Assembly (NCBI GenBank): GCA_964444505.1
Contig: CAYUHF010000003.1
Location: 28,189-92,188 of the forward strand
DNA length: 64,000 bases
Source of the DNA: an uncultured Methanosarcinales archaeon
GTDB taxonomy: Archaea; Nanobdellota; Nanobdellia; Woesearchaeales; JAGVZT01
Direction of reading: 5' to 3'
In this document: positions 2,598 through 26,045 of the stretch, piece after piece
Numbering within the stretch: position 1 is the stretch's first letter
Layout: each line of letters begins with the position of its first letter
Program-made: the position numbers and the translations under genes
The notes under the pieces: model-generated
What the model was told of the DNA's origin: nothing
Databases searched by the model: none
What the model saw: only the letters and a program-made list of their open reading frames with translations

Positions 2598-2717
2598 TAT
2601 ATGACCCCCAAATTAGAACTGATTTACTATGTTATATATTTTTTGGGTTTAGAATATTTATATTTGGGTCTTTTGTGCAGTTTACAATAAATGAGATATG
2701 ATTTTTACCTCCTCCAT

Positions 2718-2777
2718 GGCACAGACGGCCATTTGCGCATAGCCTATTCCATTGCTTCGCAACTCCATCTGGCCAGG
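2718..2777 (+). repeat. 60-nt dispersed repeat (copy A), a relic of an HTH-MNT gene 5' end
   Basis: The sequence ggcacagacggccatttgcgcatagcctattccattgcttcgcaactccatctggccagg is about 90% identical to the reverse complement of 13341-13401. It lies in a spacer between two minus-strand genes. The spurious ORF 2691..3140 runs through it. Confidence 0.6.
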
Positions 2778-2829
2778 AGGCAAAAATCTCTGAATAATGA
2801 TAATTTTGTAGTAATATCAAAAAAAAAAT

Positions 2830-4482
2830 TTAGCCATAGACTTCCTGGCCGTTGGATGCGTATGGTTCTGTTGGACTTGTACTTGTTTCTGCTCCCCCAT
2901 ATGAATCAAACCTCTGGCAAGTGCATCCATATCCAAATCTGCTTGTCACCACACAAGGATCTCTATTCCAGACAACCACACAATTCCCGTAAGGGTCTGT
3001 TAATTTGCATGAAGGGCAGAAGCTTATTGAAGTGCTGTACTTCTTCTCATAACCCTCCAAATCTCCATCATCATCAACATCCATGGCAAGCCAAGAGCTT
3101 GAGTATAGTGGGTAATTCTTGCTCTGACCGTTTGTCCTGAAGATTACTTCATCCGGAGGATGTCCTACACACGCTCCATCAACACATTCAAAGTCACATG
3201 TTTCAACTTCTTCCACAGTTTCAGTATATTGACATGAGGCTTCAACTGTGTCTGGTTTATCACAATAATAGTCTCTATAATTATTGTTAACAGCATTTCC
3301 CACACAATACCTGCCTGTATAGGTGTCCTTAGGGCAGTCTGAATCTGAAGTACAATCCACAGGGAGGCATAGGCCATCGCTACATTTGGTATCTGTTGGA
3401 CAGTCATATTCTATTATGTCATAATAACCATCACCCTGAATCTCACAATTCCATCTTGTACTGGGATTAGTACAACCTTTATCCCCAGCATTACACTCGT
3501 CTTCAATAACACACTCCCCATTAACACATTCCTTCCCTGGGGGACAGGGTACAACTGTACTCCATTCAAGACATGTGTCATCGTCATAATCACCACAAGT
3601 GATATATCCATCACCAGAACATTCTCTCTCACCTACAGGAAAACACCCGTCTATGCAAGGCGGTGTATCTTCTTCACATTCAGATTGTATTGAATCACAA
3701 ATGTCATCATGTTGCCAAAAGAAAAGCCATTGTTTTAGTGCATTTATCTCTGTAACTAGACCAGTAACTGAAGATTCCATATCTGATCTCCAACCTTCCA
3801 ATGATGATATGCTATCCTCAATGTCATTTACTATCTCCTGGATATCTGATTTCCACGTTTGAAGAGAGGCTAGCTGGTTCCCCTGGGCTGTGTTCTCCGT
3901 TTCAACATCGGTAATCCTTCTAGATATGTCAGTGATATCAGTTTCTGAATATTGTCCCTTTCCTTCGATATATGATGCTGGACCATCCAAGTCGTATATT
4001 GCATGACCAGATACATAGTCAAGATATAACTTGATATTTAGTATCATATCTAAGTATTTATCATCAACACAATTCGTACAATGCATATAGGAACTACCAG
4101 TCAAATATACTTTTTTATCTGAAGAAAATGCGATGTTGTCGACGTGAAGTGTACCTGTAAAATAACCTTCGTATACGAACCCACTTTGTTCTGGAGTAAA
4201 ACTAACTGCTCCTGCAAAGGCATCTTCTTTTTCATTAAAATAGGATGTAGATAAACAGACCTCTGCATTTTGCATACTTGCAGTCTCTGAATCGTAATAT
4301 TCTGTTGAAAAACAAGTACTCATATAGTCTCCCGTAAAAAAAACATCTTGCTCCGTCGAAATATCGCTCCAGTCATACATTTCTATACTCTCATCACTCA
4401 TAGGAGAGGCCATAATTGTAGATGGAAAGAAACAGAACACACTAAGAAACATAATTACCAAAGAAAAAACTCTTTTGTTCAT
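2830..4482 (-). CDS. Secreted protein (550 aa) with an N-terminal non-Cys domain, a W-rich helical segment, Cys-rich repeats and the conserved C-terminal NGQEVYG domain
   Basis: The start was trimmed to the ATG at 4482 (MNKRVFSLVIMFLSVFCFFPSTIMA signal peptide, GGGGGTG SD 7 nt upstream). The C-terminal 105 aa are near-identical to the 5965 gene. The last ~50 nt are nearly identical at DNA level to 5965-6015. Confidence 0.8.
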   Translation of the reverse strand: MNKRVFSLVIMFLSVFCFFPSTIMASPMSDESIEMYDWSDISTEQDVFFTGDYMSTCFSTEYYDSETASMQNAEVCLSTSYFNEKEDAFAGAVSFTPEQSGFVYEGYFTGTLHVDNIAFSSDKKVYLTGSSYMHCTNCVDDKYLDMILNIKLYLDYVSGHAIYDLDGPASYIEGKGQYSETDITDISRRITDVETENTAQGNQLASLQTWKSDIQEIVNDIEDSISSLEGWRSDMESSVTGLVTEINALKQWLFFWQHDDICDSIQSECEEDTPPCIDGCFPVGERECSGDGYITCGDYDDDTCLEWSTVVPCPPGKECVNGECVIEDECNAGDKGCTNPSTRWNCEIQGDGYYDIIEYDCPTDTKCSDGLCLPVDCTSDSDCPKDTYTGRYCVGNAVNNNYRDYYCDKPDTVEASCQYTETVEEVETCDFECVDGACVGHPPDEVIFRTNGQSKNYPLYSSSWLAMDVDDDGDLEGYEKKYSTSISFCPSCKLTDPYGNCVVVWNRDPCVVTSRFGYGCTCQRFDSYGGAETSTSPTEPYASNGQEVYG

Positions 4483-4604
4483 AATCAACACCCCCAAAAT
4501 CTTTAATGATAAAAAAATATATATCTTTTTCCCTGTCACAATCTGATTAGGGACAACACAGATATTCAAGAAATTTTAAATACTCTTGTTTGTGGATTCA
4601 AGAT

Positions 4605-5795
4605 ATGACACACTATCTGATTGAGTTCAGATTCCAAGGAAAAGCTAAACATGAAATCAGAGAATTAGTCTATGATATAAGGAATAGATTCAATCTTCGT
4701 GGTAAGAGAGCAGTTCCCCATATAACCTTGGCAGGACCTTTAAGTACTAATGATGAAAAAAGATTAATTGGTGAATTAAATAGGCTATGCGGCAAATCTC
4801 CCCTTATGAGTTTCCAGGTTGAAGGTTTCAGTGTTTTCAAGGAAACTGGTGTTGTATTCCTTGATATTAAGCCAAGTGAAGAATTAAAGGAGTTTCGCTG
4901 GAAACTATCAAGAAAATTACAGTCATATTGTGAGTTGAGCAAATACGATTACGATAAAAATTTTGATTTCCATGCTACAATTGCTATGAAACTGCCAGAT
5001 AGAAAGCTTGAACAAATATCCAAATATCTAGAAGAAAAACACAAAGTTGGTTTTCGTCATATCCTGATCAGGGCAACAATAATTAAAAACAAGAAGATAT
5101 TGAGAGAATACGATTTTTTCCTTAGAAGGCCTCTTACGAGAAAGCTCGCATTAAACAGAAGAGTAAAGGCAAAAACCTTTTCTCTATTGGAAGCATATTT
5201 CATTGGCAGATTTAACCCAGATGAGTTTTTTGGTAGATTTAGCTTTAGGATAAAGAAGAAAAAAGCAATAGATAAGTTAATTGATATGTTCAGAAAACCC
5301 AAGATATTTATTACATCAGATCTGCATATGGATCACAAGAACATTATGAAATACTGTGTTAGACCTTTCTTAGCCGTGGAGGATATGAATCGTACTCTTG
5401 TAAACAACTGGAACAACACAGTAAGCAAAAAAGACACAGTGTACTTTCTGGGGGACTTAGCGTTCGGCAGAGGTAGCCGATCAACAGACTATTGGATGAA
5501 AAAGTTGAATGGTAAGATTGTTTTCCTTAAAGGCAACCATGATAAATCATCTAAGATAAAGTTTCATGACAATTACACTCTTGAATATCGTGGGTACAAA
5601 TTCTTTCTTACTCATGAACCCGAAAGCATTCCTGAAGAGTGGGATGGATGGGCTATCTGTGGGCATCATCACAATAACAAAATGGATGAATATCCTTTTT
5701 TTGATAGGGAAAATAGAAGATTCAATGTTTCAACAGAGTTGACTAAATTCTGTCCCATTGAGATGGATGATCTAATAAGACAGATTCAAGAGTGA
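4605..5795 (+). CDS. Two-domain phosphoesterase: N-terminal 2H (LigT-like, two HxTx motifs) fused to a C-terminal calcineurin-like metallophosphoesterase
   Basis: The 2H motifs are PHITLAG and FHATIAM. The MPP motifs are DLHMDH, GDLAFGRG, GNHD, THEPE and GHHH. The ATG at 4605 is preferred over the TTG at 4590. It is the only plus-strand gene inside the minus-strand island. Confidence 0.7.
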   Translation: MTHYLIEFRFQGKAKHEIRELVYDIRNRFNLRGKRAVPHITLAGPLSTNDEKRLIGELNRLCGKSPLMSFQVEGFSVFKETGVVFLDIKPSEELKEFRWKLSRKLQSYCELSKYDYDKNFDFHATIAMKLPDRKLEQISKYLEEKHKVGFRHILIRATIIKNKKILREYDFFLRRPLTRKLALNRRVKAKTFSLLEAYFIGRFNPDEFFGRFSFRIKKKKAIDKLIDMFRKPKIFITSDLHMDHKNIMKYCVRPFLAVEDMNRTLVNNWNNTVSKKDTVYFLGDLAFGRGSRSTDYWMKKLNGKIVFLKGNHDKSSKIKFHDNYTLEYRGYKFFLTHEPESIPEEWDGWAICGHHHNNKMDEYPFFDRENRRFNVSTELTKFCPIEMDDLIRQIQE

Positions 5796-5964
5796 TTTAG
5801 TTAATTAGAAAATAGACTTTTTTTATAAATCAAGTCCTTACAAGGCACTAAATTTACTGATAATAAAAGAAATCTCTGATTGCGTATTCTCATCAACAAA
5901 TTTGAATAAGAAAAGAAAAATATCTCAGCATACCAATCAGCCGACTCTTCAAATGATGAAAAGT

Positions 5965-7464
5965 CTAGCCATAGACTTCCTGGCCGTTGGAAGCGTATGG
6001 TTCTGTTGGACTGCTGGATGTTTCTGCTCCCCAATAATCTGTGAATCTTGAGCATGAGCATGAATATCCCATCCTGCTTGTTACAACACATGGGTCTCCG
6101 TTCCACACAATCACACAGTTTCCGTACGGGTCTGTCAGCCTGCATGATGGACAGAAGCTTATTGAAGTGCTGTATTTTTTCTGGTAGCCTTCCAATTCTC
6201 CGTTTCCATCTACGTCCATTGCCAGCCATGTTCCTGAATACAATGGATAATTTGCTGACTGGCCGTTTGTCCTGAAGATGACTGACTGTGATGTGTCGCA
6301 TTGTCCGTCAACACAATCTCCAGCGCATGTCTCTACCAGGACAGGATCTACACTGTCTGAACATGATGAATCCAGTGTTCCTGGATTTGAACATGTGTAT
6401 GTTCTCTGGTCTCTGTAGACGGCATTCCCGTCACAGTAATTTTCTGTGACCCATTCATCTGTTCCGCAGTCTGAGTCCTGTGTGCAGGTGAATGACTGGC
6501 ACTCACCGTCAACACATGCATCATTGCAGGTCATTATTGTTTCATCTGTGTCTGTGTATTCACATGCAGCAGATGGTGTTCCTGCGTTCTCGCAGGAATA
6601 ATCCCTGTAAGTGTCATGCACTTCAGCCCCGTCACAGTATCTTCCAAGATACCTGTCTGAAGGACAGTCTGAGTCTGAGTTGCAGCTCACTGCAACACAT
6701 TCTCCATCAAGGCATGCTTCTGCACAGTCTTCGACTAGTTCGTCTGTGTCTGTGTACTCGCATGATGACTGGAGTGTTCCTGGATTTGAACAATAATAAT
6801 CTCTTTGTGTATTGTAGACATCATTGTTCTGGCAGAACTCGCCAAGATAGGTGTCTGACAAACAATCTGAATCTGATTCACAGGCAACTCCTGAGCATGA
6901 GCCTGCTGCATCACACAAGTTTGAGTGTGATGAGAAACCAAGCCAGTCTTTTATTGCCTGGATTGTGTTATCAACAGTGGTCTTCCACTGCATCAGTAAA
7001 GATAAGTCCTGTTCTGCTGTTGTTTTCCAGTCTTCGAGTGCTGCAAGTCTTTCTTCAACATCTCCTGTCGGCTGGCAGTCAGCAACTGTTACATCTGTCA
7101 ATCCTCCAACATCTGTCTCACTCCCTCCTGAAAAACCATAGGTTCCTGAAAAAGAGGATGTGCCTGTTGACATTGGTGCCTGGACTGTATAAGTATGAGT
7201 TGTGTCCTCTGCTCCTGAGAGGATTGTCCAGAATATGTGTGGTGGATTTGTGGTTGAATCTCCGCCCCCGCTGTTCGTGACAGTAAATCCTGCCGGAACA
7301 ACTTCATCTATTAAATATGAAGATTCTGTATTGACATCCACATTCAAAGTCACGTCAAACTCTTCTCCCATGCAGGGTGTCTGCGTGGAAAAAGTTCTTG
7401 ACACTGTTCCTGCAAAAACTGCAGGTATCATCATCAAAAACATCAGATAATAAATTTTTTTCAT
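5965..7464 (-). CDS. Secreted protein (499 aa) with an Ig/CARDB-like N-terminal domain, a WK helical motif, 4 DSDC...NPGT Cys repeats and the C-terminal NGQEVYG domain
   Basis: The start was trimmed to the ATG at 7464 (MKKIYYLMFLMMIPAVFA, GGGGGAT SD). The unit DSDC(x)YLG.YC.GN.VY..RDY.C.NPGT is repeated four times. The C-terminal block ends EPYASNGQEVYG. Confidence 0.8.
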   Translation of the reverse strand: MKKIYYLMFLMMIPAVFAGTVSRTFSTQTPCMGEEFDVTLNVDVNTESSYLIDEVVPAGFTVTNSGGGDSTTNPPHIFWTILSGAEDTTHTYTVQAPMSTGTSSFSGTYGFSGGSETDVGGLTDVTVADCQPTGDVEERLAALEDWKTTAEQDLSLLMQWKTTVDNTIQAIKDWLGFSSHSNLCDAAGSCSGVACESDSDCLSDTYLGEFCQNNDVYNTQRDYYCSNPGTLQSSCEYTDTDELVEDCAEACLDGECVAVSCNSDSDCPSDRYLGRYCDGAEVHDTYRDYSCENAGTPSAACEYTDTDETIMTCNDACVDGECQSFTCTQDSDCGTDEWVTENYCDGNAVYRDQRTYTCSNPGTLDSSCSDSVDPVLVETCAGDCVDGQCDTSQSVIFRTNGQSANYPLYSGTWLAMDVDGNGELEGYQKKYSTSISFCPSCRLTDPYGNCVIVWNGDPCVVTSRMGYSCSCSRFTDYWGAETSSSPTEPYASNGQEVYG

Positions 7465-8051
7465 ACTGATCCCCCTTTCCATAATGTTATTGCGTCAAGC
7501 AAATTATTCATGTCTGCCTGGCCTGACTTCCAGACATTGATATAATCAAGAACTTCATCCATCTCAACTGAACTGCTGCAGTCTGTGTCTGAAAAGTGTG
7601 CTTTTGTCTCGTCTACCTGGCCGTTGCAGTTGTTGTCTTTGCCGTCGCAAAGCTCTGGTGCGCCTGGATAGACTTCTGGGTCGTAATTGTCGCAGTCTGT
7701 TTCTGTGTAGCCGTCTGCATCATAATCTGTTTCGCATGCATCTCCTACACCGTTGTTGTTTGAGTCCTGCTGGTCACGGTTCCATGTGTTCGGGCAGTTG
7801 TCCTGGTAATCAGGAAAACCGTCCAGGTCTTCATCATGTTCTGTGCAGCTGCAGCCATAAGCATCATTGCAGTACTGTGGAAGAGTCCACATTCCATTGT
7901 CCTTGACACACATGTAGCAGCACTCGCTCTCACAGACATAATAGCCTGAAAGAATCTGGCCCTGATCCATGCATACCCAGTAGTTAGCTGATACACTTGC
8001 AGCTAACACCAAGAAAGCAATTAATCCTATCAACATTCTTTTTGTTTTCAT
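7461..8051 (-). CDS. Secreted Ca-binding-like protein with thrombospondin type-3-like repeats and a CxGxDNxCxG motif
   Basis: The start was trimmed to 8051 (MKTKRMLIGLIAFLVLAASVSA). DGFPDYQDNCPNTWNRDQQDSNNNGVGDACETDYDADG fits the TSP3 DxDxDG...DNCP...N.DQ.D consensus. ELCDGKDNNCNGQVDE resembles the MopE-type putative metal-binding motif. A C-terminal WK motif (LDYINVWKSGQADMNNLLDAITLWKGG) is present. There is a 4-nt overlap with the upstream gene. Confidence 0.7.
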   Translation of the reverse strand: MKTKRMLIGLIAFLVLAASVSANYWVCMDQGQILSGYYVCESECCYMCVKDNGMWTLPQYCNDAYGCSCTEHDEDLDGFPDYQDNCPNTWNRDQQDSNNNGVGDACETDYDADGYTETDCDNYDPEVYPGAPELCDGKDNNCNGQVDETKAHFSDTDCSSSVEMDEVLDYINVWKSGQADMNNLLDAITLWKGGSV

Positions 8052-8201
8052 TTTGAAGCATGATGTCACAGGCCCCCCGTATTGGTTTGGGGTGGAGAAC
8101 GATAATCATGTTAGTTCTCACATGGAGAGCCTGTGACTTTAATAATCGTGATGTTATTTAAGTGTTTTTAAAAAAGAAAAAAAAAATTAAAAAAGTTGTC
8201 C

Positions 8202-9386
8202 TTAAACAGCCTCTCCCCAGAAGAAAATACTTCCTTGTGAAAAGTCGCCGTTACATGGCTCTGGCAAGTCAAGCTTGAATGTCAAAGACATCTCTGCGCC
8301 TGGTGCTAACAAGTTAGCCCCGTAGCCCATATCTGCATCTCCTGCAAATGGTCCATCAATTGGATTAGCCTGCAGGATTTCAGCTTCATTGTACATTGCT
8401 CTTGCAAAGTGATCGCCGTACTGGATGTTGACATAATTCTCTTGATCCAAAGTTCTTGTTGTTGCTGGATCGTAAGTGTTGTCATCATCTGTTGCATCAT
8501 CAGCACTTGAATAAGCGCCGTTTGTTGCAAAGTAAGCAAAGTTGTGCAAGTCAAGCTTGTTTGTTGTAGGACACTTAGCACCTGAGTGTGCTGGGTCATA
8601 AAAGTCTGTTCCTGATATAAACATATCAAGTAGTACTCCTGAACCATCCTCTGCGCCGTTACCTACTGTCAGAGTGTTTGAGTAAACCTGTGTTCCAGGT
8701 CTTACGCCATTCTCTCCGCCAAATGTAAGCTGAGATCCGTCAAGTGTCAATGAGATTGCTGGATTGAAGAACCAGTATTCGTTCTCGTCCATTGATCCCA
8801 TTAAACCATCAAGGTCAACAACATTTGCTGTTACCCAGTACTCACCATGGAAGATGTCGTCTCCTCCTTCTACCATCTGTGGACCTTCAACAGTTAGAGT
8901 ACATCTGTAGTAGTCCATTGTGTTTGCGTCAAAGTCTACTAACTGCTCTTCGTCAATTCTTGCATTACAAGAATCACAAATTTGTCCATTTGAATCATCA
9001 CATGGAGCACTTGTCTTGTCACAGTTCACTTCAATCTCGTTTCCGCTTCCCTGTACTTTGCCAACTGATACATAAACATCCTCGATCTTCTCGATTCCGT
9101 TCTTGTCCATGACAAGTACTGTCCAGGCAATCTGTTCTCCTTCAAAAGCGTAGTTGTTATTTCTCTCAAGAAGCTCTGCGCCTACCTCAGCGTCACCTAC
9201 TGCGCCTGCGGTAATTCTTCCCCACTCAACATTGTCATCTGACACAAATCTACTGTCACACATCCAAATTCGTGGTTCAAAGTCCTCTGTTGGTATGTCA
9301 ATGCCTACACTGCCGCCAATGCTATTTGCAAAAACAGCTGGTAGCAACATTGCCACAGCCATCAAAACTGCTATTAGTTTTTTCAT
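8202..9386 (-). CDS. Secreted acidic protein (394 aa), possibly a cell-surface or S-layer-like component
   Basis: The start was trimmed to the ATG at 9386 (MKKLIAVLMAVAMLLPAVFA). A strong GGAGGT SD lies 7 nt upstream. The protein is D/E/G/N-rich with few Cys. There is no recognisable catalytic motif. Confidence 0.6.
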   Translation of the reverse strand: MKKLIAVLMAVAMLLPAVFANSIGGSVGIDIPTEDFEPRIWMCDSRFVSDDNVEWGRITAGAVGDAEVGAELLERNNNYAFEGEQIAWTVLVMDKNGIEKIEDVYVSVGKVQGSGNEIEVNCDKTSAPCDDSNGQICDSCNARIDEEQLVDFDANTMDYYRCTLTVEGPQMVEGGDDIFHGEYWVTANVVDLDGLMGSMDENEYWFFNPAISLTLDGSQLTFGGENGVRPGTQVYSNTLTVGNGAEDGSGVLLDMFISGTDFYDPAHSGAKCPTTNKLDLHNFAYFATNGAYSSADDATDDDNTYDPATTRTLDQENYVNIQYGDHFARAMYNEAEILQANPIDGPFAGDADMGYGANLLAPGAEMSLTFKLDLPEPCNGDFSQGSIFFWGEAV

Positions 9387-9912
9387 GTTTTTTAACCTCC
9401 TTCCTATTCTATTCAAATCATTATCCAGCTTGCGCCGGATATTGTGGCCGATCATAAACCAACCACACCCCTATTAGATAGGGCCCTCTCCAACAAATCG
9501 GGTGAAATGTTGGGTCATGAAACTCATGACAATAATTTTGAGACTAGCTAAACGTAGAATCTTGTTTGGCTCCCCTCAAACCTTTGTACACCCCCTACCA
9601 ACACTAACATTTTTTTATCATCATAGAATGATGATTGTTTGTGATATCTATCGTAGAGTAGTATTCCATATAAATATATTGTTGTAAGACAATTTATATT
9701 CTAAAACACCGAAAAAATCGTTTATCACAAGTTGGATACGAACTGTTCTAAGACTAAAAAACAAGCTTTTAAGCACTTTTTGGTATTTTCAACACAAAAG
9801 TGTGACAACTCAGTTGATTTATAAAACTATTTGAAAATGACAACAAAAATCTATTACCACTAGAAAAAATAACAGAGTGTTTTATCCATGTAGATACGAG
9901 AGGGGGGAAATA

Positions 9913-10403
9913 TCAGCTGGTGAGCTTTGTGAACTGTTTTCTTAGTGATTTGACCACTTCATTTGTAAGGTTAGCTTTAATCAATTTTATATTAACAACA
10001 AACCCTTCTGCCATCTCCATTAGTTCTTCTGCTTTTTTTCTGACCTCACCTTCAGAAACATAGTACTGTTTTTCGATTCTTTCTTCCTTCACCAGTGTGC
10101 TAGCCAGTTCCTTGTCAACCCCCTAAGAATCAGAATCGAACCCAGATGATTTTCTGATTTAATACCTACCTTGTACAGAAGAGAGATTAAAATATTGTAC
10201 ATTGTATAATATGACATAGCCACAGAGTTCTCATAAAGAGAATTTTCATACAACAATCTGGCAGATTTCATGCAATTTGCCGATTTCTCAGCATAAGAAT
10301 TTGAAATATTCTCTGAAGGATCAATAAGACTTAACTTTTCCTCCTGTCTTAATCTCGCCAAAAATCTTGTCATAGTACTCTTCAAAACCCTTAACAATGA
10401 CAT
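9913..10403 (-). pseudogene. HEPN-domain toxin paralogue 1, disrupted by a frameshift in a C5/G5 homopolymer
   Basis: ORF 10089..10403 ends ...ILILRGLTRNWLAHW*. A second frame continues GVDKELASTLVKEERIEKQYYVSEGEVRKKAEELMEMAEGFVVNIKLIKANLTNEVVKSLRKQFTKLTS*, which aligns with the C-terminal half of HEPN paralogue 2 (GLSKEDL...). A +1 shift at the ccccc run (10110-10114) restores a ~160-aa protein. Confidence 0.55.
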
Positions 10404-10974
10404 GGTTTTTTATGATCTCCTGAATAAGAGCCGAATTCTTATCGAATCTTCCGGATTTTACATTAATCCCAGAAAGTGTTTTTTCGATTTTTTCTTCAAC
10501 ATAAAGGTCGATATCACTATTCTTTCGTGCAGTACCTTTTGCATAAGAGCCGAAAAGAATTACCATGCTGTCTGTCTTGATATCAGCAAATATCACCCTT
10601 AGATGTGGATACTTGGTGAGTGTTTTTTCCAATACGTAGAGCTCTGAAGTCAGCATGTAGACCTTTGAAAACATATTTTTCTTTACAAAATAGACTTTGT
10701 TTCTGCCCTTTTTTTCAAAATCAACCACCTGCTTACAATAAAGAGAATTCAGTCTTCTGGATACAGTGGAATGTGGCTCATCTAAAATCCTTGCCAACTC
10801 CCTGACATGCATCTCCTTCTTAACCAAGTAATGCACAATCTCCAGCTCAATATTGTTTCTATTTTGAACCATATGTACCAATAATGAACCAATAGTATTT
10901 AATGTTTTTGCTTTATAGCCAAACTGCCCTTCTTTGCCGTAGCTGTAAGAAAAGTGATCAATTAGAATTATCAA
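10321..10974 (-). CDS. wHTH + minimal nucleotidyltransferase (MNT) antitoxin-type protein, copy 1
   Basis: The NTase motif is LFGSYAKGTARKNSDIDLYV (GS...DxD). An N-terminal winged HTH (HVRELARILDEPHSTVSRRLNSL) is present. There is an apparent TTG start. The gene overlaps both flanking HEPN genes. Confidence 0.7.
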   Translation of the reverse strand: MIILIDHFSYSYGKEGQFGYKAKTLNTIGSLLVHMVQNRNNIELEIVHYLVKKEMHVRELARILDEPHSTVSRRLNSLYCKQVVDFEKKGRNKVYFVKKNMFSKVYMLTSELYVLEKTLTKYPHLRVIFADIKTDSMVILFGSYAKGTARKNSDIDLYVEEKIEKTLSGINVKSGRFDKNSALIQEIIKNHVIVKGFEEYYDKIFGEIKTGGKVKSY

Positions 10975-11521
10975 CCATATCCCTTAGCTTATTCACAAAC
11001 AAAACAGCTTTTATCCTAAGATTCTCAACTTCCATACTATCAAAAAGCGTCTTAGTTGAATATGTGGCATTCTCTCTTTTATTCTTTGACTCAACATAAA
11101 ACAGAACATCCTCATAGTCCAAAAAACCTGAGACAATTATCAGATCTTCTTTGGACAGACCCTTCTTATAGAACTTTTCTATCAGAACCAATAGTGTAGC
11201 TTCATGGTTTTTGGAGGAATAACCTTTTGTCTGTATCAATGCCAGTGCTGCATGATAGCAGGCATAATAGCATCCAGTAATTGCCCAATCATAGAATTTA
11301 TTTTCAGAAGCCAGTTTGATAAACCTAAGGTTGTTCTCTGCTTTTGAAATATGCCCTTCTATTTCTGCATGGTCAATCTCCTGTTTATTCAGCAGCCCCT
11401 CATTTCTATACTTTTTGATCCTCCCACTCACAATTTCAGGGTTGTCCAATAGTCTAAGAAGCTCATATTCTCTCATCAAGGACCTCATAATATGAGATGT
11501 GATTGACGATCGGATAACCAC
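10958..11521 (-). CDS. HEPN-domain protein (toxin partner of MNT), copy 2
   Basis: The size and all-helical sequence fit, and it overlaps the MNT genes on both sides. It is paralogous to 9913..10403. A KNH variant replaces the canonical Rx4-6H motif (YSSKNHEATLLVL). The true start is probably at an internal Met (MRSLMREYELL). Confidence 0.55.
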   Translation of the reverse strand: MVIRSSITSHIMRSLMREYELLRLLDNPEIVSGRIKKYRNEGLLNKQEIDHAEIEGHISKAENNLRFIKLASENKFYDWAITGCYYACYHAALALIQTKGYSSKNHEATLLVLIEKFYKKGLSKEDLIIVSGFLDYEDVLFYVESKNKRENATYSTKTLFDSMEVENLRIKAVLFVNKLRDMVDNSN

Positions 11522-12131
11522 TGTTTATTGCAGACTGTATTACCTTATCCTCTTTAAGTTTAAGTTCAATAACAAAATCATTGTATTCAATCTGGAAAGT
11601 ATTAATCTTAACTGCAGCAAGAGCATCTGCTTCATTTTCTGCATCTTTTGTTGAAATCTTTTTGTTTGTGACAAGCAGTATATCCATATCAGACTCTTTC
11701 TTTTGCGTGCCTTTGGCAGTTGAACCAAAAAGAACCGCAAAGACAGGTACTTGGTCAAGCTTTTCCATGTATGCCTTTATCGCTTTTTTTCTTATTCTGG
11801 GCAGTTTCTGATACCTTTCAACATCAAAAGAAGTAAACACAAGATACGCTTGTCTTGTCTTCTTAACTCTAAAGAGTTTTAGATTCCCTTTCCTGTCTGA
11901 CTTTAGTATTTGGTCCTCTTCCAGTCTTTCAAGAAATCTGGTTACGCTTGGTAGATGCATATCTGCCCTTCTTGCAATTTCTCTTAGATGCAATTCCCTG
12001 CCCATATCATCATAGAATAACTGCATTATTTCCATATAGCCGTTTTTTAATATTGTTACCATTATTATATCAATCGTTATAATATCTTTATCATATATAA
12101 ACCTTTCTAACTGTTTCATATGATTAATCAA
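11463..12131 (-). CDS. wHTH + minimal nucleotidyltransferase (MNT), copy 2
   Basis: LFGSTAKGTQKKESDMDILLV matches the NTase motif. An N-terminal HTH (LHLREIARRADMHLPSVTRFLERL) is present. The protein is paralogous to 10321..10974. Confidence 0.7.
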   Translation of the reverse strand: MINHMKQLERFIYDKDIITIDIIMVTILKNGYMEIMQLFYDDMGRELHLREIARRADMHLPSVTRFLERLEEDQILKSDRKGNLKLFRVKKTRQAYLVFTSFDVERYQKLPRIRKKAIKAYMEKLDQVPVFAVLFGSTAKGTQKKESDMDILLVTNKKISTKDAENEADALAAVKINTFQIEYNDFVIELKLKEDKVIQSAINSGYPIVNHISYYEVLDERI

Positions 12132-12214
12132 TCCATAGCTCTTTTTATGACATAACCAAGAAAAATCGGAATAAAGTCGGATTAAACAAAAAATCTCCAG
12201 TAAGTGAAATCCAC

Positions 12215-12850
12215 CTATATTTTGGCCTTTATGTTTCCAATAAGCTTCTGGGAGAACATATTCCAGAATAATGCCTCTCTAATATATGGTGCCTCTGGTA
12301 TTGCATCACTTGCAGAATATTTGTTAATAAGGCTCCTATACACTCTCTGAGACTTATCATAAGCCTGTTTTACTGTTTTTCCCTTTAGAATTGATCTTGG
12401 AATAATATTACTTGGTGTCATAAAAATTGAGCCAATTTCATCTTTCTCAGGTGTACATTCTTTGTTTTTATCAGTCAGGAAAACAAAAGGTGCTTTGTAA
12501 CCAATGAATGCCTTGCATTTCTTATTAACAGCAGATACACCTAAACTCTTTGCTGAGTTGCATGAGAGAGAATAGCATATCTTACCAGAGAGCAGTTTGT
12601 CATTCACATTTTCCTCAATCAGCTTCATATTATCATATCCGCATATGACAGAGTTACTCCCGTGCCCATTAAACCAGACAAAATCAATGTTCCTCTTTTT
12701 CAGAAAGCTTTCAACAGTAGTCCTATCCGACCTTTCTCCATCTAAAAGATAAATTGACGGTTCAAATTCACAAATAACCTCTGAAGCCCAGCATGCAAGG
12801 TATTGAGTAGTCAGGTCTGAATTAGGCAAGGTTACTAAGGTTTTGTTCAT
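12215..12850 (-). CDS. Stand-alone caspase-like (clan CD, C14-like) cysteine peptidase domain protein, 211 aa, cytoplasmic
   Basis: FVWFNGHGSNSVICGYDN...LSGKICYSLSCNSA matches the caspase His-Gly...Gly-Lys-(hydrophobic)5-x-C-x-G/S-A dyad pattern. Compare caspase-3 SHGEEGIIFGTNG...GKPKLFIIQACRG. There is no signal peptide. A 4-nt ATGA overlap joins it to the upstream small gene. Confidence 0.55.
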   Translation of the reverse strand: MNKTLVTLPNSDLTTQYLACWASEVICEFEPSIYLLDGERSDRTTVESFLKKRNIDFVWFNGHGSNSVICGYDNMKLIEENVNDKLLSGKICYSLSCNSAKSLGVSAVNKKCKAFIGYKAPFVFLTDKNKECTPEKDEIGSIFMTPSNIIPRSILKGKTVKQAYDKSQRVYRSLINKYSASDAIPEAPYIREALFWNMFSQKLIGNIKAKI

Positions 12851-13050
12851 TCTATCCCTTTCTTAAAAGATCTCAAATAGTTCAGCTGCATCTCAATCAC
12901 AAGCTTTCCAAACTCATCCTTTCTCTTGACAGCAGCTATAAGCTCATCTCTGTCAAAACTGCCGTAATTGCCAAGATGAGTCTTGATATTATTAGGCATT
13001 GACTCTAGTCTTTTTACAACAAGCTGTACAATATCTTCTGAATAATCCAT
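12847..13050 (-). CDS. Small hypothetical protein (67 aa), middle gene of the 3-gene cassette
   Basis: Its ATG directly abuts the TAA of the upstream ORF (TAAATG), suggesting translational coupling. No motif was recognised. Confidence 0.45.
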   Translation of the reverse strand: MDYSEDIVQLVVKRLESMPNNIKTHLGNYGSFDRDELIAAVKRKDEFGKLVIEMQLNYLRSFKKGIE

Positions 13051-13386
13051 TTAGATCAAATCCATCCCCTTGAGTTTTTCAAGTATTCTCCTCCCAAGTT
13101 CAGTCCCATTATCAACTTCTATGTAAGCTGCATTCCATGAATACGGCTTGTCATCAACAACTACTATTATCTCATTTCTTACATCTTCAGGAAGATTTGA
13201 ATAAACCCTCAAAAACCTGTCTTTTGACATCTGAAGCATATTACATTTCTCATCTATATAAAGATTATTAAAACATAACATAAAATATCCAAAAAACTTT
13301 CGAGAAAAAGTGTGGTTCCACCAATTAAAATCACATACAGCCTCGGCCAGATGAAGTTGCGAAGCAATGGAATAAGCCATGAGCAA
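13051..13386 (-). CDS. Small hypothetical protein (111 aa, or 62 aa from the internal ATG at 13239)
   Basis: The first ~17 codons (MLMAYSIASQLHLAEAV) come from the 60-nt MNT-derived repeat and are probably not native. A likelier start is MLQMSKDRFLRVYSNLPEDVRNEIIVVVDDKPYSWNAAYIEV. It is in the same frame as the 67-aa ORF, separated by a single TAA. Confidence 0.4.
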   Translation of the reverse strand: MLMAYSIASQLHLAEAVCDFNWWNHTFSRKFFGYFMLCFNNLYIDEKCNMLQMSKDRFLRVYSNLPEDVRNEIIVVVDDKPYSWNAAYIEVDNGTELGRRILEKLKGMDLI

Positions 13387-13401
13387 ATGGCCTTCTGTGC
13401 C
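13341..13401 (-). repeat. 60-nt dispersed repeat (copy B), continuous with ~27 nt homologous to the 5' end of MNT copy 1
   Basis: The reverse complement is ~90% identical to 2718-2777. Positions 13391-13417 (ccttctgtgccgtagctgtaagaaaaa) match 10926-10953 at the start of the MNT gene at 26 of 27 positions. Confidence 0.6.
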
Positions 13402-13419
13402 GTAGCTGTAAGAAAAAAA

Positions 13420-16400
13420 TTAAACAACAATGATTGGCCTGTGCCTTACCCTTCTCAAGCCTTCATTGTATAATTCAAGCTTGACCATGTAAAACCCTGG
13501 CCTTGCATCATCAGGTATTTCCAGCAACAAGTCTCTTGTCAACTCACCGTCAGCATTCACACTCATTGGACCGAGTCTTCTGCTCTTGATTCCAAGTCCC
13601 TGGACAAATGCCTCTATTTCTAGATTCTTCATCTCACAATAACCCATGTTCCTGAAGTTTACTGTTATCTGGAGCTCTTCTCCCGGCTCTACAACCTCAT
13701 CATACACAAACCCGATTCTGTCGATTCTTATCTTTGCCTTTGGCTCGTTTATGTAGTTGTAGTCGCACTCTGTTTTTTCATACTCGCACATGCAGTCGCT
13801 GCAGATATCTATTGTTGTCGGGTTGTCATCAAAGCAGTCTGCATCTGTTGCACACTCTGCTCCGCATCTTCCAGCTACACACTGTGTTTTTGTCTCAAAT
13901 TCACCAAAAACACACATACACTGTGAACTGCAGTCACCATAGCCCTGTGCTACTGACAGCTTGTTTCCAACACACTCTTCTTCTTTTGCAAAGCAGTTTT
14001 CATTCCCGGAAGTTCCAGGTAGTTCACATTCCTCTCCTGCATCAATGTTTCCATCACCGCAGTAAGGAACATACTCGTGCTCACACATACAACCGCTGCA
14101 TGTGTCTATTGTGTGCTCGTTCAGGTCATTGCAGTCATCATCTGAGTCACACTCAGCACCGCATGATCCCTGCACACATTCTGCTACTGGCCATACATCC
14201 TGCAGACAGCCGCAGTTTGGATCACAGTAACCAAATTCATCCCTGGTTGCTGTTTTCTTGCCTTCGCACTTTTCTGTGCTTTGTTCACAATATGAGTTGT
14301 CCTGTGTATCAGGCAGCTCACATTCTTCACTTGATGAATCAACCATCCCGTCACCACAATATCCATTGTGGGTGTATTCACATACACAGCTGTCTGTACA
14401 GACATCATCTGTTAATGGGTCTGAATCATCACAGTCTGAATCTGTCTCGCACTCTGCATTACATCTTGACATGTCACATGTATGAGTAAGTGTATCATCT
14501 TCTGTTGTACATTCACCTGGCTCTACACATTCTGATTCAAAACCTTCTCTTTTGTCCCATGTGTATGGGTTGCTATCAGGTATATTGTTACATGTCATTA
14601 TCTCTTCTATATCATATTCTGAGCAGTCTATTGGCTCTCCTGGTACACAGAATGCTGAATCATTATCTTCTTCACATGACTCCTGGCCATTGCAGCCAAG
14701 TCCGTCATCACAGTCCTGTTTTAGTGTATCTGAAAAAACACACTCTGCATTAGAACATGTCCCATCTCTTCCCCAGTGTTCTGTTCCTACACAGTAGCCG
14801 CTGTCAAGCTCATTGCAATCCTCTGTGGTTGTTTCTGTTTCACATTGGTTTTCTATACATACTCCTTGGTCATGTTTTACAAAGTCTCCATCACAGTAAT
14901 CATCATCTAAATAATCACAGTCTGAGTCTTCCATACATTCATATGGCTGGCACATCTCATCACAGCCATTTGTTCCTGGTGCAAACTCATCACATTCTGG
15001 TGCTGAAAGACATCCTGCATAGTCATCTTCACAGTGGTTGTCCTGCAGTTTGCAGTTTGCATCACAGTAGTCCTGCAGATATGGTGAACCATGCTCATCA
15101 CATGAAGCCAAAACTGTATTTGGCAGCTCACACTCCTCTCCAGCATCAGGATCAACTATTCCGTCACCACAGTAGCCATTATGGGTGTATTCACATGTAC
15201 AGCTGTCTGTACAAATATCATCTGTTAAAGGATTTGAATCATCACAATCAGAGTTTCTCTCGCACTCTGCATTACATCTTGAGATGTCACAGCTGTGCGT
15301 TATCATTTCGTCTCCAGTTGTACATTCTCCTGGTTCTACACATTCTGATTCAAAACCTTCTCTTTTGTCCCACGTGTATGGGTTGCTGTCAGGCATATTG
15401 TTACATGTCATTATCTCTTCTATATCATATTCTGAGCAGTCTATTGGCTCTCCTAAAACACACTCTGCCTGGTGATCAGCTCCTGGTGTTTCTTCACATG
15501 TCTCCTGGCCGTTGCAAGCAAGCCCGTCATCACAACTATAACTGTCTGAATCTATTATTACACACTTTGCAGAGTCACATGAATACAATTCTGTTACAAT
15601 GGAATTTCCTGAACAGTATTCTGTGTCAAGCTCACTGCAGTCCTCTGTTGTGGTCTCAACTTCACATTTATTTTCTATACATACTCCTTGGTCGTGCCTG
15701 ATCAAATCTCCAGCACAGTAATCATCATCCAGATAATCACAGTCTGAATCATCCATACACTCGTATGGCTGGCATGTCAAGTCACAGCCTTCTGTTCCAG
15801 GGATCACTTCATCACACTCTGGGTGAGCTGAACATCCTGGATAATCATCTTCACAGTGCTCATCCTGAAGCTGGCAGTTCGCATCACAATAGTCTCCAAG
15901 ATAGCTGCTTCCATAATCACATGATGCCAAAGCTGTATTTGGCCTCTCACATTCTTCGCCTGCATCAGGATCAACTATGCCGTCTCCACAGTAGCCTTGC
16001 TTAATATGCTCACATTCGCATTCTACACATATATCATCAGTAAGAGGATTTGAATCGTCACAATCAGAGTTTTTCTCGCATTCTGCATTACACCTTGATA
16101 TATCGCATGCGTGTGTAATTATTCCTCCCCATGTTGTACATTGGCCTGGCTCTATACATTCTGATTCAAAGCTTTCTCTATAGTCCCATGAAAATGGATT
16201 ATCATCTGGTATATTGTTGCAGGTTGAAATCTCTTCTTTATCATTATATGAACAGTCGATTGGTTCTCCTGGTACACAGAATGCTGTATCAAGGTCTTCT
16301 TCACATGACTCCTGGCCATTGCATGCAAGGCCATCATCACATTGTTCAACTAAACTTGTTGAAACTGAACACTGTGCATTACTGCATGTTCCATCATCTT

Positions 16401-17676
16401 CCCAGACTTTTGAATTTGAGCAATATTCCTGATCATACTGGTTGCAGTCCTCAGTTGTTGTTTCAACTTCACATTCAAAATTAATACATACTCCTTCATC
16501 ATGTTTTACAAAGTCACCAGTACAGTAATCATCATCTAAATAATTACAGTCTGAATCATACTGGCATTCTGTGCATCTTGGGTCGTTGTAGCTTACTGTT
16601 GGGTTTGAACAACTGTTCTCCTCGCACATACAGTTTCTGCAGTCATTAACTTTGTCTGAATAATCATAATAATCATTTCCAACACACCCGTCAAGATGGT
16701 CGCATTCTGTATTGTCACAGTCATAGTTTGAGTCACAATCAGCACCACATCTGCCCTCAACACACTGGAAATTAAAACTGTCAAATATACATCCGCAGTA
16801 GTGGCCGCAGTCTCCATAATAGTCTCTTGTTCCCAGTTTGTTTCCTTCACACCTTTCTGTGCTCTGGACACAATAGTGGTTGTTGTAGGTATCTGGATAT
16901 TCACAACTCTCTGTATAGTCTACATGTCCGTCACCACAGTAAGACTGCTGTTCTATTGTAAAGCTGCTGTCTGCACATGGAATGTTGTGGTCTTTGTAGA
17001 ACATTGCATAATATATTCCTGTCTGGGTTGGTGTGTATTCCCAGTCCCAGTAGCCTTTCTGGCCTGCTTTGTGATGGTTACCCATCCTATCTGGTCCTCC
17101 AAGACTCACTATAGTGCCTGAAGGATTTCTTACTTTAACAATTACATTTGTATAAGGAACATATGATCTTATTCTTATGTAGAATTTCTGGTCTAAAGAA
17201 GGTGTTACCTGGTTTCCATACTGGTCAACAAAGAGCATCTCTTCGTGTGCATCTGGGTCGCAACTCTGCACTTCACCGCCGTCTCCCACCCACACAATAA
17301 AGTCATTAACTGTGTTGTCATATCCAGGAGCATTGAATATATCTATCTGCTGTGTCTGGTCTCCATTTGCATTTATACAAAAAGACCCTGATGTCTTGAC
17401 TTCAGGTGTTGAATCCCTGCACTCTATGCCTGTATCTCCCTGGCAGGTGTGTCTTTCTACTCTCCAGCCGCTGTAAGGTACTGTACAGCACATTGTGTCT
17501 TCATTACATCCAATACAGTTTGGATCATTTTCATATGCACCGCAGATATTTACTATCTCTCCCCATGCACCGCTCTGGCTCTGGTGAGGTATTGGCGGGT
17601 TCGGGTATCCTATTACTGCCTGTAAGGCTATTAGAAATAATACTGAGTAAATTACAAATCTTGTTTTTTTATCCAT
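13420..17676 (-). CDS. Giant secreted cysteine-rich modular surface protein 1 (1418 aa), with 3 copies of a ~270-aa module and a C-terminal CARDB-like beta-sandwich
   Basis: The start was trimmed to the ATG at 17676 (MDKKTRFVIYSVLFLIALQAV signal peptide). Repeated motifs are CMDDSDCDYLDDDYC, CDDGLACNGQETCEE and CGDGIVDPDAGEECE (Myxococcus-type Cys-rich repeat-like). The C-terminus GEELQITVNFRNMGYCEMKNLEIEAF...GFYMVKLELYNEG is CARDB-like. Confidence 0.85.
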   Translation of the reverse strand: MDKKTRFVIYSVLFLIALQAVIGYPNPPIPHQSQSGAWGEIVNICGAYENDPNCIGCNEDTMCCTVPYSGWRVERHTCQGDTGIECRDSTPEVKTSGSFCINANGDQTQQIDIFNAPGYDNTVNDFIVWVGDGGEVQSCDPDAHEEMLFVDQYGNQVTPSLDQKFYIRIRSYVPYTNVIVKVRNPSGTIVSLGGPDRMGNHHKAGQKGYWDWEYTPTQTGIYYAMFYKDHNIPCADSSFTIEQQSYCGDGHVDYTESCEYPDTYNNHYCVQSTERCEGNKLGTRDYYGDCGHYCGCIFDSFNFQCVEGRCGADCDSNYDCDNTECDHLDGCVGNDYYDYSDKVNDCRNCMCEENSCSNPTVSYNDPRCTECQYDSDCNYLDDDYCTGDFVKHDEGVCINFECEVETTTEDCNQYDQEYCSNSKVWEDDGTCSNAQCSVSTSLVEQCDDGLACNGQESCEEDLDTAFCVPGEPIDCSYNDKEEISTCNNIPDDNPFSWDYRESFESECIEPGQCTTWGGIITHACDISRCNAECEKNSDCDDSNPLTDDICVECECEHIKQGYCGDGIVDPDAGEECERPNTALASCDYGSSYLGDYCDANCQLQDEHCEDDYPGCSAHPECDEVIPGTEGCDLTCQPYECMDDSDCDYLDDDYCAGDLIRHDQGVCIENKCEVETTTEDCSELDTEYCSGNSIVTELYSCDSAKCVIIDSDSYSCDDGLACNGQETCEETPGADHQAECVLGEPIDCSEYDIEEIMTCNNMPDSNPYTWDKREGFESECVEPGECTTGDEMITHSCDISRCNAECERNSDCDDSNPLTDDICTDSCTCEYTHNGYCGDGIVDPDAGEECELPNTVLASCDEHGSPYLQDYCDANCKLQDNHCEDDYAGCLSAPECDEFAPGTNGCDEMCQPYECMEDSDCDYLDDDYCDGDFVKHDQGVCIENQCETETTTEDCNELDSGYCVGTEHWGRDGTCSNAECVFSDTLKQDCDDGLGCNGQESCEEDNDSAFCVPGEPIDCSEYDIEEIMTCNNIPDSNPYTWDKREGFESECVEPGECTTEDDTLTHTCDMSRCNAECETDSDCDDSDPLTDDVCTDSCVCEYTHNGYCGDGMVDSSSEECELPDTQDNSYCEQSTEKCEGKKTATRDEFGYCDPNCGCLQDVWPVAECVQGSCGAECDSDDDCNDLNEHTIDTCSGCMCEHEYVPYCGDGNIDAGEECELPGTSGNENCFAKEEECVGNKLSVAQGYGDCSSQCMCVFGEFETKTQCVAGRCGAECATDADCFDDNPTTIDICSDCMCEYEKTECDYNYINEPKAKIRIDRIGFVYDEVVEPGEELQITVNFRNMGYCEMKNLEIEAFVQGLGIKSRRLGPMSVNADGELTRDLLLEIPDDARPGFYMVKLELYNEGLRRVRHRPIIVV
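14361..16572 (-). repeat. Array of three ~810-nt coding tandem modules inside giant gene 1
   Basis: The module boundaries are derived from the repeated YECM(D/E)DSDCDYLDDDYC anchors at aa ~375, 646 and 919. Long stretches are identical in DNA to modules of giant gene 2. For example, 14907-15155 and 19080-19358 give identical alternate-frame peptides. Confidence 0.75.
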
Positions 17677-17723
17677 TTTTATTGTCCACCTCAAATGTTA
17701 TAACCATTAAGTGACTACTATCA

Positions 17724-23115: not shown

Positions 23116-23125
23116 ATTAAGACCT

Positions 23126-24280: not shown

Positions 24281-24613
24281 TTTACATACCTCCATTGAAC
24301 ATGTTCTAAAAGTCAAAACAACTTGTTTCTTTATTACTTTAGAGTACTAAACCACTTATATAAATGTTTCGGTTACTTGGAAACCCGAGCTAATAGTCAT
24401 TTGATGCACGACAGTAATTATGCCACCTGTGGATAATTCAGAAATGCTTTTCTTAATTCCTGAACATAGTGACGGGACAGCCCGGGCTTCACCTCGGATT
24501 TTCAAGTCAGCAAATCCGCTTTCTAAAACCAAGAAGTACCCTGCAATTCAGTGTGGGAGCATCAGAAGCATATTTACGTTATTTATTTATACCAAGACAA
24601 TTATACTTTTTTT

Positions 24614-25654: not shown

Positions 25655-26024
25655 GGTCTAAAATCAGCAGTATTTCTTTTGGGTCGCTTGCTCAGTGCTC
25701 TTCACTGATAGGAGCAAGCTCCGCAATAGTGCACCATCACAAAACTGAATTGACCACAAATCCTTCCGTGGCCAGACGTAATTGCGATGTTTTGAGCAAT
25801 GAAGTAGGACACTCGCAAGTGGCCGTCTGTGCCATGGGACGGAAGGATTTCTAAAGCATTAACATCTGTGCATTGGGTGCGGATGTCAAGAGTTCAAAGG
25901 TGATTCCAGAAATAAAGTAAATCTTGGATCCTCACCCTGCCTGTGGGGTATTGACGCCTCCATTTCTGCGAGGGAGATTTTTAAATAGCTTTTTTTCGCA
26001 ATATTTATAAATTATCTAAAGTTC
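25655..26024. ncRNA. Candidate structured non-coding RNA of unassigned class
   Basis: This spacer has no ORF and is visibly GC-enriched relative to its flanks. It has multiple long complementary segments: gcttgctc/gagcaagc (8 bp), ccttccgt...acggaagg (8 bp), gacg/cgtc and cactcgca/tgcgag. RNase P P4 (GGAAAGUCC) and SRP helix-8 (GGAAGCAGC) signatures were not found. Confidence 0.35.
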
Positions 26025-26045
26025 ATGCAAACAAGGGGGTATATC

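Follow-up and report, generated by a model that had tools for sequence, protein, structure and literature searches.

The region 9913-12131 of a 64,000-nt stretch of archaeal DNA (contig CAYUHF010000003.1; the whole stretch is called the window) carries two neighboring cassettes on its minus strand. Each cassette combines a gene for a minimal nucleotidyltransferase (MNT) fused to a winged helix-turn-helix (wHTH) domain with a gene for a HEPN protein. The gene order MNT2, HEPN2, MNT1, HEPN1 proposed in an earlier sequence-only reading is backed by Pfam for all four genes. Both MNTs match NTP_transf_2, and PF05168 is matched by HEPN2 and by the N-terminal half of HEPN1. The list of open reading frames (ORFs) contains five ORFs rather than four, as HEPN1 is not the single ORF assumed earlier and falls into two halves of 104 aa (10089-10403) and 59 aa (9913-10092). 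The two modules, cassette 1 (MNT1 and HEPN1) and cassette 2 (MNT2 and HEPN2), appear to be independent and anciently diverged, each stemming from its own DPANN-wide family of strictly paired genes. The features of the locus are as follows, with Pfam E-values where given:

11463-12131, minus strand: MNT2, maximal ORF; NTP_transf_2 3e-10, Polbeta 6e-11, HTH_IclR 7e-6
11463..12062, minus strand: MNT2 from the homologue-supported start, ATG at 12062; 199 aa
10958-11521, minus strand: HEPN2, maximal ORF; PF05168 HEPN 5.7e-8
10958..11476, minus strand: HEPN2 from the start at 11476; 172 aa, intact, identical to database protein P0001
10873..10957, minus strand: spacer of 85 nt with the putative cassette 1 promoter
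10321-10974, minus strand: MNT1, maximal ORF with TTG start; NTP_transf_2 2.8e-9, HTH_5 8.9e-5
10321..10872, minus strand: MNT1 from the homologue-supported start, ATG at 10872; 183 aa, intact
10089..10403, minus strand: HEPN1 5' fragment; PF05168 1.1e-4 over the first half of the profile only (positions 6-57); 104 aa with the first ATG as start, 94 aa with the ATG at 10373, premature TGA; contains K82-S-E-N-H86
10119..10123, minus strand: frameshift site, a run of five G; one additional G restores the frame
9913..10092, minus strand: HEPN1 3' fragment; no Pfam match alone; 59 aa, GTG start overlapping the upstream TGA as GTGA (10089-10092); contains E-E-R109-I-E-K-Q113-Y114-Y115

The starts of both MNT genes were set from the N-termini and lengths of homologues. 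MNT2-type homologues are nearly all 200 aa long among the matches listed and begin with M-x-T-(I/L)-L, which places the MNT2 start at ATG 12062. MNT1-type homologues begin with MVQN(R/K), which places the MNT1 start at ATG 10872. With the supported starts, the genes overlap within each cassette, by 14 nt between MNT2 and HEPN2 and by 53 or 83 nt between MNT1 and HEPN1. An overlap had been described for every junction, but this holds for the maximal ORFs only, since HEPN2 and MNT1 are separated by the 85-nt spacer. The spacer suggests two transcription units instead of one overlapping string of four genes.

Gene pairing is strict in both families. An MNT2-type gene lies directly upstream of a HEPN2-type gene in 55 of 55 species-representative loci, with a 14-nt overlap in the gene calls examined. 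Likewise, an MNT1-type gene precedes a HEPN1-type gene in every locus examined, with overlaps of 8-32 nt. Together with the hidden Markov model searches and predicted folds, this pairing upholds the description as HTH-MNT/HEPN cassettes of toxin-antitoxin type, apart from the split of HEPN1. Homologues are numerous, with 338 database proteins for MNT2, 419 for HEPN2 and 282 for HEPN1, the aligned ones of the latter being 44-54% identical. Named homologues come from the DPANN groups Woesearchaeota, Nanoarchaeota, Pacearchaeota and Aenigmarchaeota, and for HEPN2 the names among the matches listed are Woesearchaeota or Nanoarchaeota. These labels are the basis for placing the window in a DPANN genome of Woesearchaeota/Nanoarchaeota type. 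In a library of 1.84 billion proteins clustered at 50%, HEPN2 matched 348 clusters at E <= 1e-3 and 16 at E <= 1e-30, and such a small number of clusters indicates a narrow family. The best match in a scan of species-representative genomes with HEPN2 was 68% identical. Between the two cassettes of the window, MNT1 and MNT2 share about 32% identity in a global alignment, as do HEPN1 and HEPN2, and the segments found by tblastn are 31-35% and 25% identical. No DNA similarity was found between the two cassettes (best blastn E = 0.5).

Neighboring cassettes are not as unusual as had been thought. A Woesearchaeote contig (L035, WJJD01000166.1) carries the same order MNT2-HEPN2-MNT1-HEPN1, with an intact HEPN1. 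Another locus (L026) has a different second cassette downstream of the first. A third type of HTH-nucleotidyltransferase/HEPN pair lies at 814-1739 of locus L070, 0.7 kb upstream of an MNT1-type cassette and divergently oriented, and its HEPN carries the motifs LSH and RNSINYY. The clustering of several MNT and HEPN genes in archaea was noted as early as 2013 (PMC3710099). The genes surrounding the cassettes vary by genome, and some loci lie beside CARF, restriction-modification or other toxin-antitoxin genes. In a groundwater Nanoarchaeote (L005/L006, 4675-11915), the HEPN2-type cassette is placed between a Csa3/CARF-like gene and genes for type I HsdM and HsdS, which represents a defence-island context. 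Cassette genes broken into two or three pieces were found at three further HEPN2-type loci (L060, L063 and L064). Variable neighbors and broken copies are traits typical of mobile toxin-antitoxin or defence modules.

Both MNTs carry the additional N-terminal wHTH that was noticed earlier, with Pfam scores of 26.2 bits for HTH_IclR in MNT2 and 22.7 bits for HTH_5 in MNT1, against a cutoff of 22 for each. NTP_transf_2 also exceeds the Pfam cutoff in MNT1 and MNT2. The nucleotidyltransferase (NTase) motif reads G113-S114-x10-D125-x-D127 in MNT2, with all residues invariant in the family alignment, and GS-x10-DID in MNT1. The signature GS-x10-DxD is invariant in both MNT families. The AlphaFold2 (AF2) model of MNT2 consists of a wHTH with three helices and a beta-hairpin wing (residues 7-66), followed by an alpha/beta NTase core. 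In Foldseek searches, the N-terminal part matched TrmBL2, MarR and ArsR regulators as well as AF1382 structures, and the C-terminal part matched a Sulfolobus NTase as well as the MNT antitoxin 8xeo (32% identical across 77 columns). Sequence searches of the PDB returned the NTase chain of the HEPN-NTase complex 9xbd as the best match of MNT2, and Shewanella MntA (5yep) for MNT1, across the GS..DxD motif. Both MNTs also match the PADLOC profile PDC-M05A, at 2.6e-18 for MNT2 and 3.2e-13 for MNT1, spanning the wHTH and NTase regions. Both modules appear to have the architecture of a wHTH-MNT with an AF0298-like HEPN-T protein, as does the PADLOC candidate defence system PDC-M05.

The HEPN proteins had been described as carrying KSENH and SSKNH at the site of the canonical Rx4-6H ribonuclease (RNase) motif. 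Both motifs exist and the site is indeed non-canonical, but they lie about 25-35 residues upstream of the canonical position, in the insert between helices 2 and 3. They are also no peculiarity of this locus, being a published hallmark of AF0298-like HEPN-T proteins (PMC3710099). According to Anantharaman et al. (2013, PMC3710099), such proteins typically lack the His of Rx4-6H but have the basic residue; another strongly conserved His precedes the motif, within the helix-2/helix-3 insert, and might provide an alternative active site. KSENH and SSKNH align with DSKTH of AF0298, and their His (H86 in HEPN1, H91 in HEPN2) is invariant among 21 sequences per family. This residue is the alternative conserved His of AF0298-like HEPN-T proteins. 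At the canonical position, F-D-L-R-E-E-S-D-Y of AF0298 aligns with K-E-E-R109-I-E-K-Q113-Y114 of HEPN1, so that the Arg is kept, Gln replaces Asp and the Tyr is kept. R109, Q113, Y114 and Y115 are all invariant in the HEPN1 family. Both families also conserve a Tyr next to the canonical motif position, Y114/Y115 in HEPN1 and Y127 in HEPN2. The conserved C-terminal Tyr of MNT-associated HEPNs is a predicted target of nucleotidylation (PMC3710099).

HEPN2 is the more divergent at the canonical site. The protein scores 33.4 bits with PF05168 (gathering cutoff 22), and its AF2 model (pLDDT 86) shows the four helices of the HEPN fold, with an insert separating helices 2 and 3. The top Foldseek match is 2hsb (E = 1e-5, TMt 0.82), alongside 1wol, 1ufb, 1o3u, sacsin (3o10) and HepT chains. 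The alternative His motif is S88-K-N-H91, and in the model H91 begins the insert helix 91-102. Columns were mapped by a profile-profile alignment of the two window families with hhalign (probability 99.7%) and by alignment of the HEPN2 family with 2hsb. By this mapping, L-D-Y-E122-D123-V-L-F126-Y127-V fills the columns of the canonical motif, with an acidic residue (E122 or D123) in the Arg column and the Tyr alone kept. A highly conserved loop of the family, K131-N-K-R134-E-[DN]-A-T-Y139-S-T-K, reads KNKRENATY in the window copy and is modeled with pLDDT below 50. R134 is invariant and lies in this loop, 11 residues downstream of the canonical Arg column, and could act as a functional substitute for the canonical Arg. 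R134-x4-Y139 as the equivalent of the canonical motif was considered and ruled out, because in the profile-profile alignment the canonical column falls on E122/D123, and R134 belongs to an insertion found in this family. A basic residue (K/R) is nearly always found seven residues ahead of the alternative His, as [KR]G[YF][ST]SK[ND]H (residues 84-91), and 5 of the 21 aligned sequences formally hold Rx6H at this site; the AF0298 equivalent is RDSKTH. None of the 21 HEPN1-family sequences contains Rx4-6H, and the HEPN2 family contains it by chance only, as R84..H91 or near the N-terminus.

Upstream DNA of both gene pairs is conserved at the nucleotide level. The feature of cassette 2 is:

12054..12101, minus strand: promoter/operator-like region with TATA box TTTATATA at 12094-12101, then 19-nt sites at 12075-12093 and 12054-12072, the counterparts of the TGTTA-N9-TAACA dyads of the family, the second of which spans the ATG

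About 60 nt upstream of MNT2-type genes are conserved in register in 30 genomes (L013-L061, L002 and L004). An A-rich stretch is followed by a TATA box (TTTATAWA) about 33 nt ahead of the ATG. In these 30 genomes, a pair of TGTTA-N9-TAACA dyads, 21 bp apart, comes next, and the second dyad extends across the start codon. The halves of the dyads are 72% and 64% complementary in register, compared to 24-46% with the partner half slid by 1-3 nt. Four genomes have TGTTT..AAACA in both dyads, which is a compensatory change. In the cassette 1 spacer, a TATA-like TTAAATA at 10896-10902 is followed by repeats of the form TGGTTCA-N5-TGGTACATA-TGGTTCA at 10865-10891, which run into the start codon. The block of TATA and repeats (10865-10902) is nearly identical in seven genomes, namely the window and L007, L009, L011, L068, L069 and L070. 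The last TGGTTCA repeat of MNT1-type genes forms codons 1-3 (ATGGTTCAA). Archaeal TATA boxes lie about 25-30 nt upstream of the transcription start, many archaeal mRNAs lack a leader, and repressors frequently act from sites immediately 3' of the TATA box. Given this spacing and placement, we infer that the operons are leaderless and repressed by the wHTH that they encode. Binding of the wHTH to the dyads or repeats of its own promoter, and autorepression of a probably leaderless operon, is the most likely function of these sites.

HEPN1 is treated here as a gene that was probably inactivated recently by a frameshift, in a cassette that keeps an intact MNT1 and promoter, next to an intact cassette 2. 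The 5' fragment scores 22.7 bits with PF05168, at a gathering cutoff of 22. Adding one G yields a repaired protein of 163 aa, which covers 95-99% of the length in alignments with homologues of 160-163 aa at about 50% identity. A profile search with HEPN1 matched 2hsb at E = 4e-8 over 113 residues, by sequence profile only. HEPN1 retains every family-invariant residue. Loss of the HEPN gene with the MNT kept is the usual route of decay, the toxin being disarmed first.

The sequence-only reading also described MNT-derived scars at 2718 and 13341. Real repeats exist at both places, but all that connects them with the cassettes is a stretch of 34 nt matching the non-coding spacer ahead of MNT1. 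The repeats are copies of a small self-complementary intergenic element and not remnants of MNT genes:

13335-13425, minus strand: full copy of the intergenic hairpin element (about 75-90 nt)
2694-2784, plus strand: full copy of the same element
10917-10953, minus strand: truncated copy

A repeat finder reports a 57-nt inverted repeat between 2718-2774 and 13345-13401 with a 91% match. A tblastn search with either MNT gave no match at 2718, and at 13384-13434 it aligned no more than 17 residues, all from the stretch of the maximal MNT1 ORF that precedes the true start. The spacer match comprises 34 nt within 10917-10953 and corresponds to 13384-13417 with three mismatches. The hairpin at 13335-13425 has a folding energy of -29.7 kcal/mol, with z-scores of -4.8 for the minus strand and -4.6 for the plus strand, and the hairpin at 2694-2784 one of -28.6 kcal/mol (z = -2.8). 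The outer stems of the copies differ in sequence, yet pair in both. The two full copies are mutually inverted and flank 10.6 kb (2718..13401) holding surface-protein genes and both cassettes. Rfam gave no match in the whole window at gathering thresholds, nor in 13250-13500 at E <= 1, and ARAGORN found no tRNA. The element is hence not a known RNA or a tRNA fragment. Exact-pattern scans of JGI metagenome contigs for the element returned zero matches. An integron attC-like nature was considered and rejected, as no integrase was found by Pfam in the ten flanking ORFs scanned (1524-9455 and 23126-29389); the ends of the element also do not resemble attC core sites.

The features of the locus probably reflect a toxin-antitoxin module similar to type VII, in which the MNT would neutralize the HEPN through nucleotidylation of a tyrosine. 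We favor this reading with moderate confidence because of the overlapping MNT-then-HEPN ORFs, the intact NTase site, the conserved Tyr, the operator-like promoter, the mobile context and the recurrent decay. The wHTH of the MNT would bind the operator dyads or repeats that follow the TATA box, ahead of the start codon, and repress its own operon. Translation of the MNT would be coupled to the HEPN gene through the overlapping ORFs. By analogy with HepT/MntA, the MNT would most likely nucleotidylate the conserved HEPN Tyr beside the active-site region (Y114/Y115 in HEPN1, Y127 in HEPN2). Should the HEPN be an RNase, it would rely on the alternative site proposed for AF0298-like proteins, made up of a basic residue and the invariant SKxH His from the insert between helices 2 and 3.

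Known systems share parts of this arrangement. AF0298 (2hsb, 'UPF0332', PF05168) is the best match of the window HEPNs in sequence and fold (for HEPN1 by sequence profile only). The two have in common the missing canonical His, the invariant alternative His in the helix-2/helix-3 insert, an upstream MNT partner gene and a Tyr right after the canonical motif position (REESDY in AF0298, RIEKQYY in HEPN1). In contrast to AF0298, both window families are longer by about 35 residues at the N-terminus, HEPN1 has Gln for Asp, and HEPN2 lacks the Arg (E122/D123) and has the conserved loop KNKRE[DN]ATYSTK in addition. A literature search on UPF0332 with HEPN returned nothing relevant. In the solved complex 9xbd/9xbc, formed by a 125-aa HEPN and a 120-aa NTase, the HEPN chain shares the alternative-His region AYYAM..(S)xSSH with both window HEPNs; its NTase, however, lacks a wHTH, and only the N-terminal two-thirds of its HEPN chain aligns. 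HepT/MntA systems of type VII (Shewanella SO_3166/SO_3165 with structures 5yep/7bxo, Aphanizomenon, Legionella) share the MNT gene 5' of the HEPN gene, overlapping ORFs, GS-x10-DxD (tested in the range GS-x9-13-DxD) and a conserved Tyr near the HEPN active-site region, and HepT chains are among the structural matches. In this type, MntA adds adenosine monophosphate (AMP) units to the Tyr adjacent to the RxxxxH motif of HepT (PMC13000451). HepT is nonetheless of the DUF86/HEPN-M type with a canonical Rx4H, unlike the window HEPNs, which are HEPN-T, match PF05168 rather than DUF86 and lack Rx4H. The solved MntA has 139 aa and no N-terminal wHTH, unlike the wHTH fusions of the window. PADLOC PDC-M05 also consists of two genes, is archaea-enriched and has its M05A profile matched by both MNTs, but its M05B profile matches HEPN2 weakly and HEPN1 not at all.

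Several observations weigh against a toxin-antitoxin function of type VII. A regular-expression scan found no Rx4-6H anywhere in window HEPN1 or HEPN2. The canonical His is missing from both and the canonical Arg also from HEPN2, which makes RNase activity uncertain. Neither MNT reaches the score of 60 bits required by the NCBIfam equivalog model of MntA (about 31 bits). In MNT2, no conserved third catalytic carboxylate stands out, and the beta-3 strand has an invariant Q157. The weak M05B match of HEPN2 (1.9e-3) has no counterpart in HEPN1. The 20 aligned HEPN2 homologues are 57-68% identical to the window protein, which is high for a toxin. The operator-like sites of MNT2 in the window have left halves reading TGATA and are degenerate and less symmetric. 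The literature searched yielded no paper on 9xbd/9xbc, the closest solved HEPN-MNT complex. PDC-M05 itself is described as an NTase and HEPN pair that resembles toxin-antitoxin systems and is enriched in archaea, and its antiviral role is unconfirmed (PMC12988326).

Domestication could account for some of these points. The HEPN might be a catalytically dead subunit of the NTase that binds substrate or regulates, in a non-toxic pair where the wHTH makes a transcription regulator responsive to a nucleotide or another ligand. The absence of Rx4-6H from both HEPNs, the acidic residue of HEPN2 in the canonical Arg column, the 57-68% identity of sampled HEPN2 family members to the window protein and the location of some cassettes among housekeeping genes are all in line with such a role. 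We consider it possible but unlikely, as the invariance of the alternative His and of basic residues close to it is what the proposed alternative active site would lead one to expect. The variable context, the recurrent pseudogenes, the clustering with toxin-antitoxin and defence genes and the PDC-M05A match also argue for a toxin-antitoxin or defence module, and in the window it is the HEPN and not the MNT that was inactivated, as expected of a harmful partner. A related and rather doubtful idea concerns the HEPN2-type family alone. Both canonical residues are lost, yet sampled members are 57-68% identical to the window protein, and the alternative His is invariant, as is the Arg/Tyr pair of the flexible loop. 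This could indicate a rebuilt, undescribed active site, or a non-nucleolytic partner controlled by nucleotidylation in a wHTH-MNT module that acts as a sensor and transcription factor instead of a toxin-antitoxin pair.

Two further alternatives concern the history of the locus rather than its function. HEPN1 might still be functional if the frameshift were a homopolymer sequencing error, or if the two halves were joined by a -1 ribosomal slip or expressed as two pieces through the GTGA stop/start overlap. The shift does lie within a run of five G, one more G gives an end-to-end alignment with homologues that keeps all family-invariant residues, and the stop of the first fragment overlaps the GTG start of the second. 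However, the same split is present in a separate Logan assembly, made from run SRR15425350, which agrees with window 2118-12252 at 100% identity. Between H86 and KEER, beside the frameshift, the window protein is also 4 aa shorter than 20 of 20 aligned homologues, so that a single slipped base does not give the ancestral length. Among the matches listed, no homologue is split at this point, and apart from HEPN1 just one is short, a partial protein of 127 aa (P0208). A functional HEPN1 is therefore improbable. The earlier proposal that one cassette was duplicated in tandem, with the copies made or kept by recombination and the scars at 2718 and 13341 as traces, finds some appeal in the equal architecture of adjoining cassettes. 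In addition, 34 nt of the spacer ahead of MNT1 recur at 13384-13417, a place that forms the 57-nt inverted repeat with 2718-2774. The proteins of the two cassettes are only about 32% identical, though, their DNA shows no similarity, and they belong to separate families with hundreds of homologues. Each cassette has its closer relatives elsewhere, with identities of up to 54% and 68% to proteins of other genomes, and not in its neighbor. The repeats lie outside the homology-supported MNT1 coding region, have no tblastn similarity to any MNT and form a self-complementary hairpin element. A duplication can thus be regarded as very improbable indeed.

The locus is largely ordinary. It holds two neighboring, non-identical members of a known and abundant archaeal class of MNT and HEPN-T pairs, one of which is decaying. 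The wHTH-MNT/HEPN-T pairs of DPANN archaea form tight, strictly paired families, and the conservation of promoters and operators at the nucleotide level provides a ready-made handle on autoregulation. The alternative His, the loop Arg and the conserved Tyr are candidate residues for asking whether AF0298-like HEPNs are RNases neutralized by nucleotidylation.

The surroundings fit the surface-protein island described earlier, with giant Cys-rich repeat proteins, TSP_3/MopE and DUF11-type proteins near the cassettes, and AglB/STT3 and glycosyltransferases further on according to Pfam. As both cassette families are found in many unrelated surroundings in other genomes, there is no sign of a functional tie to the island. 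Three small co-oriented ORFs of 111, 67 and 211 aa (12215-13386, minus strand) lie between a large surface-protein gene and MNT2, and have no match in Pfam, NCBIfam or PADLOC. The 5' end of the first of them overlaps the hairpin element. An ORF at 4590-5795 on the plus strand, 4 kb from the HEPN genes, encodes a phosphoesterase of the 2H/LigT-type 2'-5' RNA ligase superfamily (4e-18) fused to a calcineurin-like metallophosphoesterase. 2H/LigT-type enzymes act on RNA ends with 2',3'-cyclic phosphates, as left by metal-independent RNases, and a link of this fusion to the cassettes is speculative. The giant Cys-rich proteins at 13420-17694 and 17917-23280 (minus strand) are paralogous, with repeat units of about 813 nt that are 60-93% identical, and the two are 91% identical over the last 300 nt. 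Three smaller paralogues on the minus strand (1524-2597, 2830-4569 and 5965-7482) have a 264-nt block at the 3' end in common.

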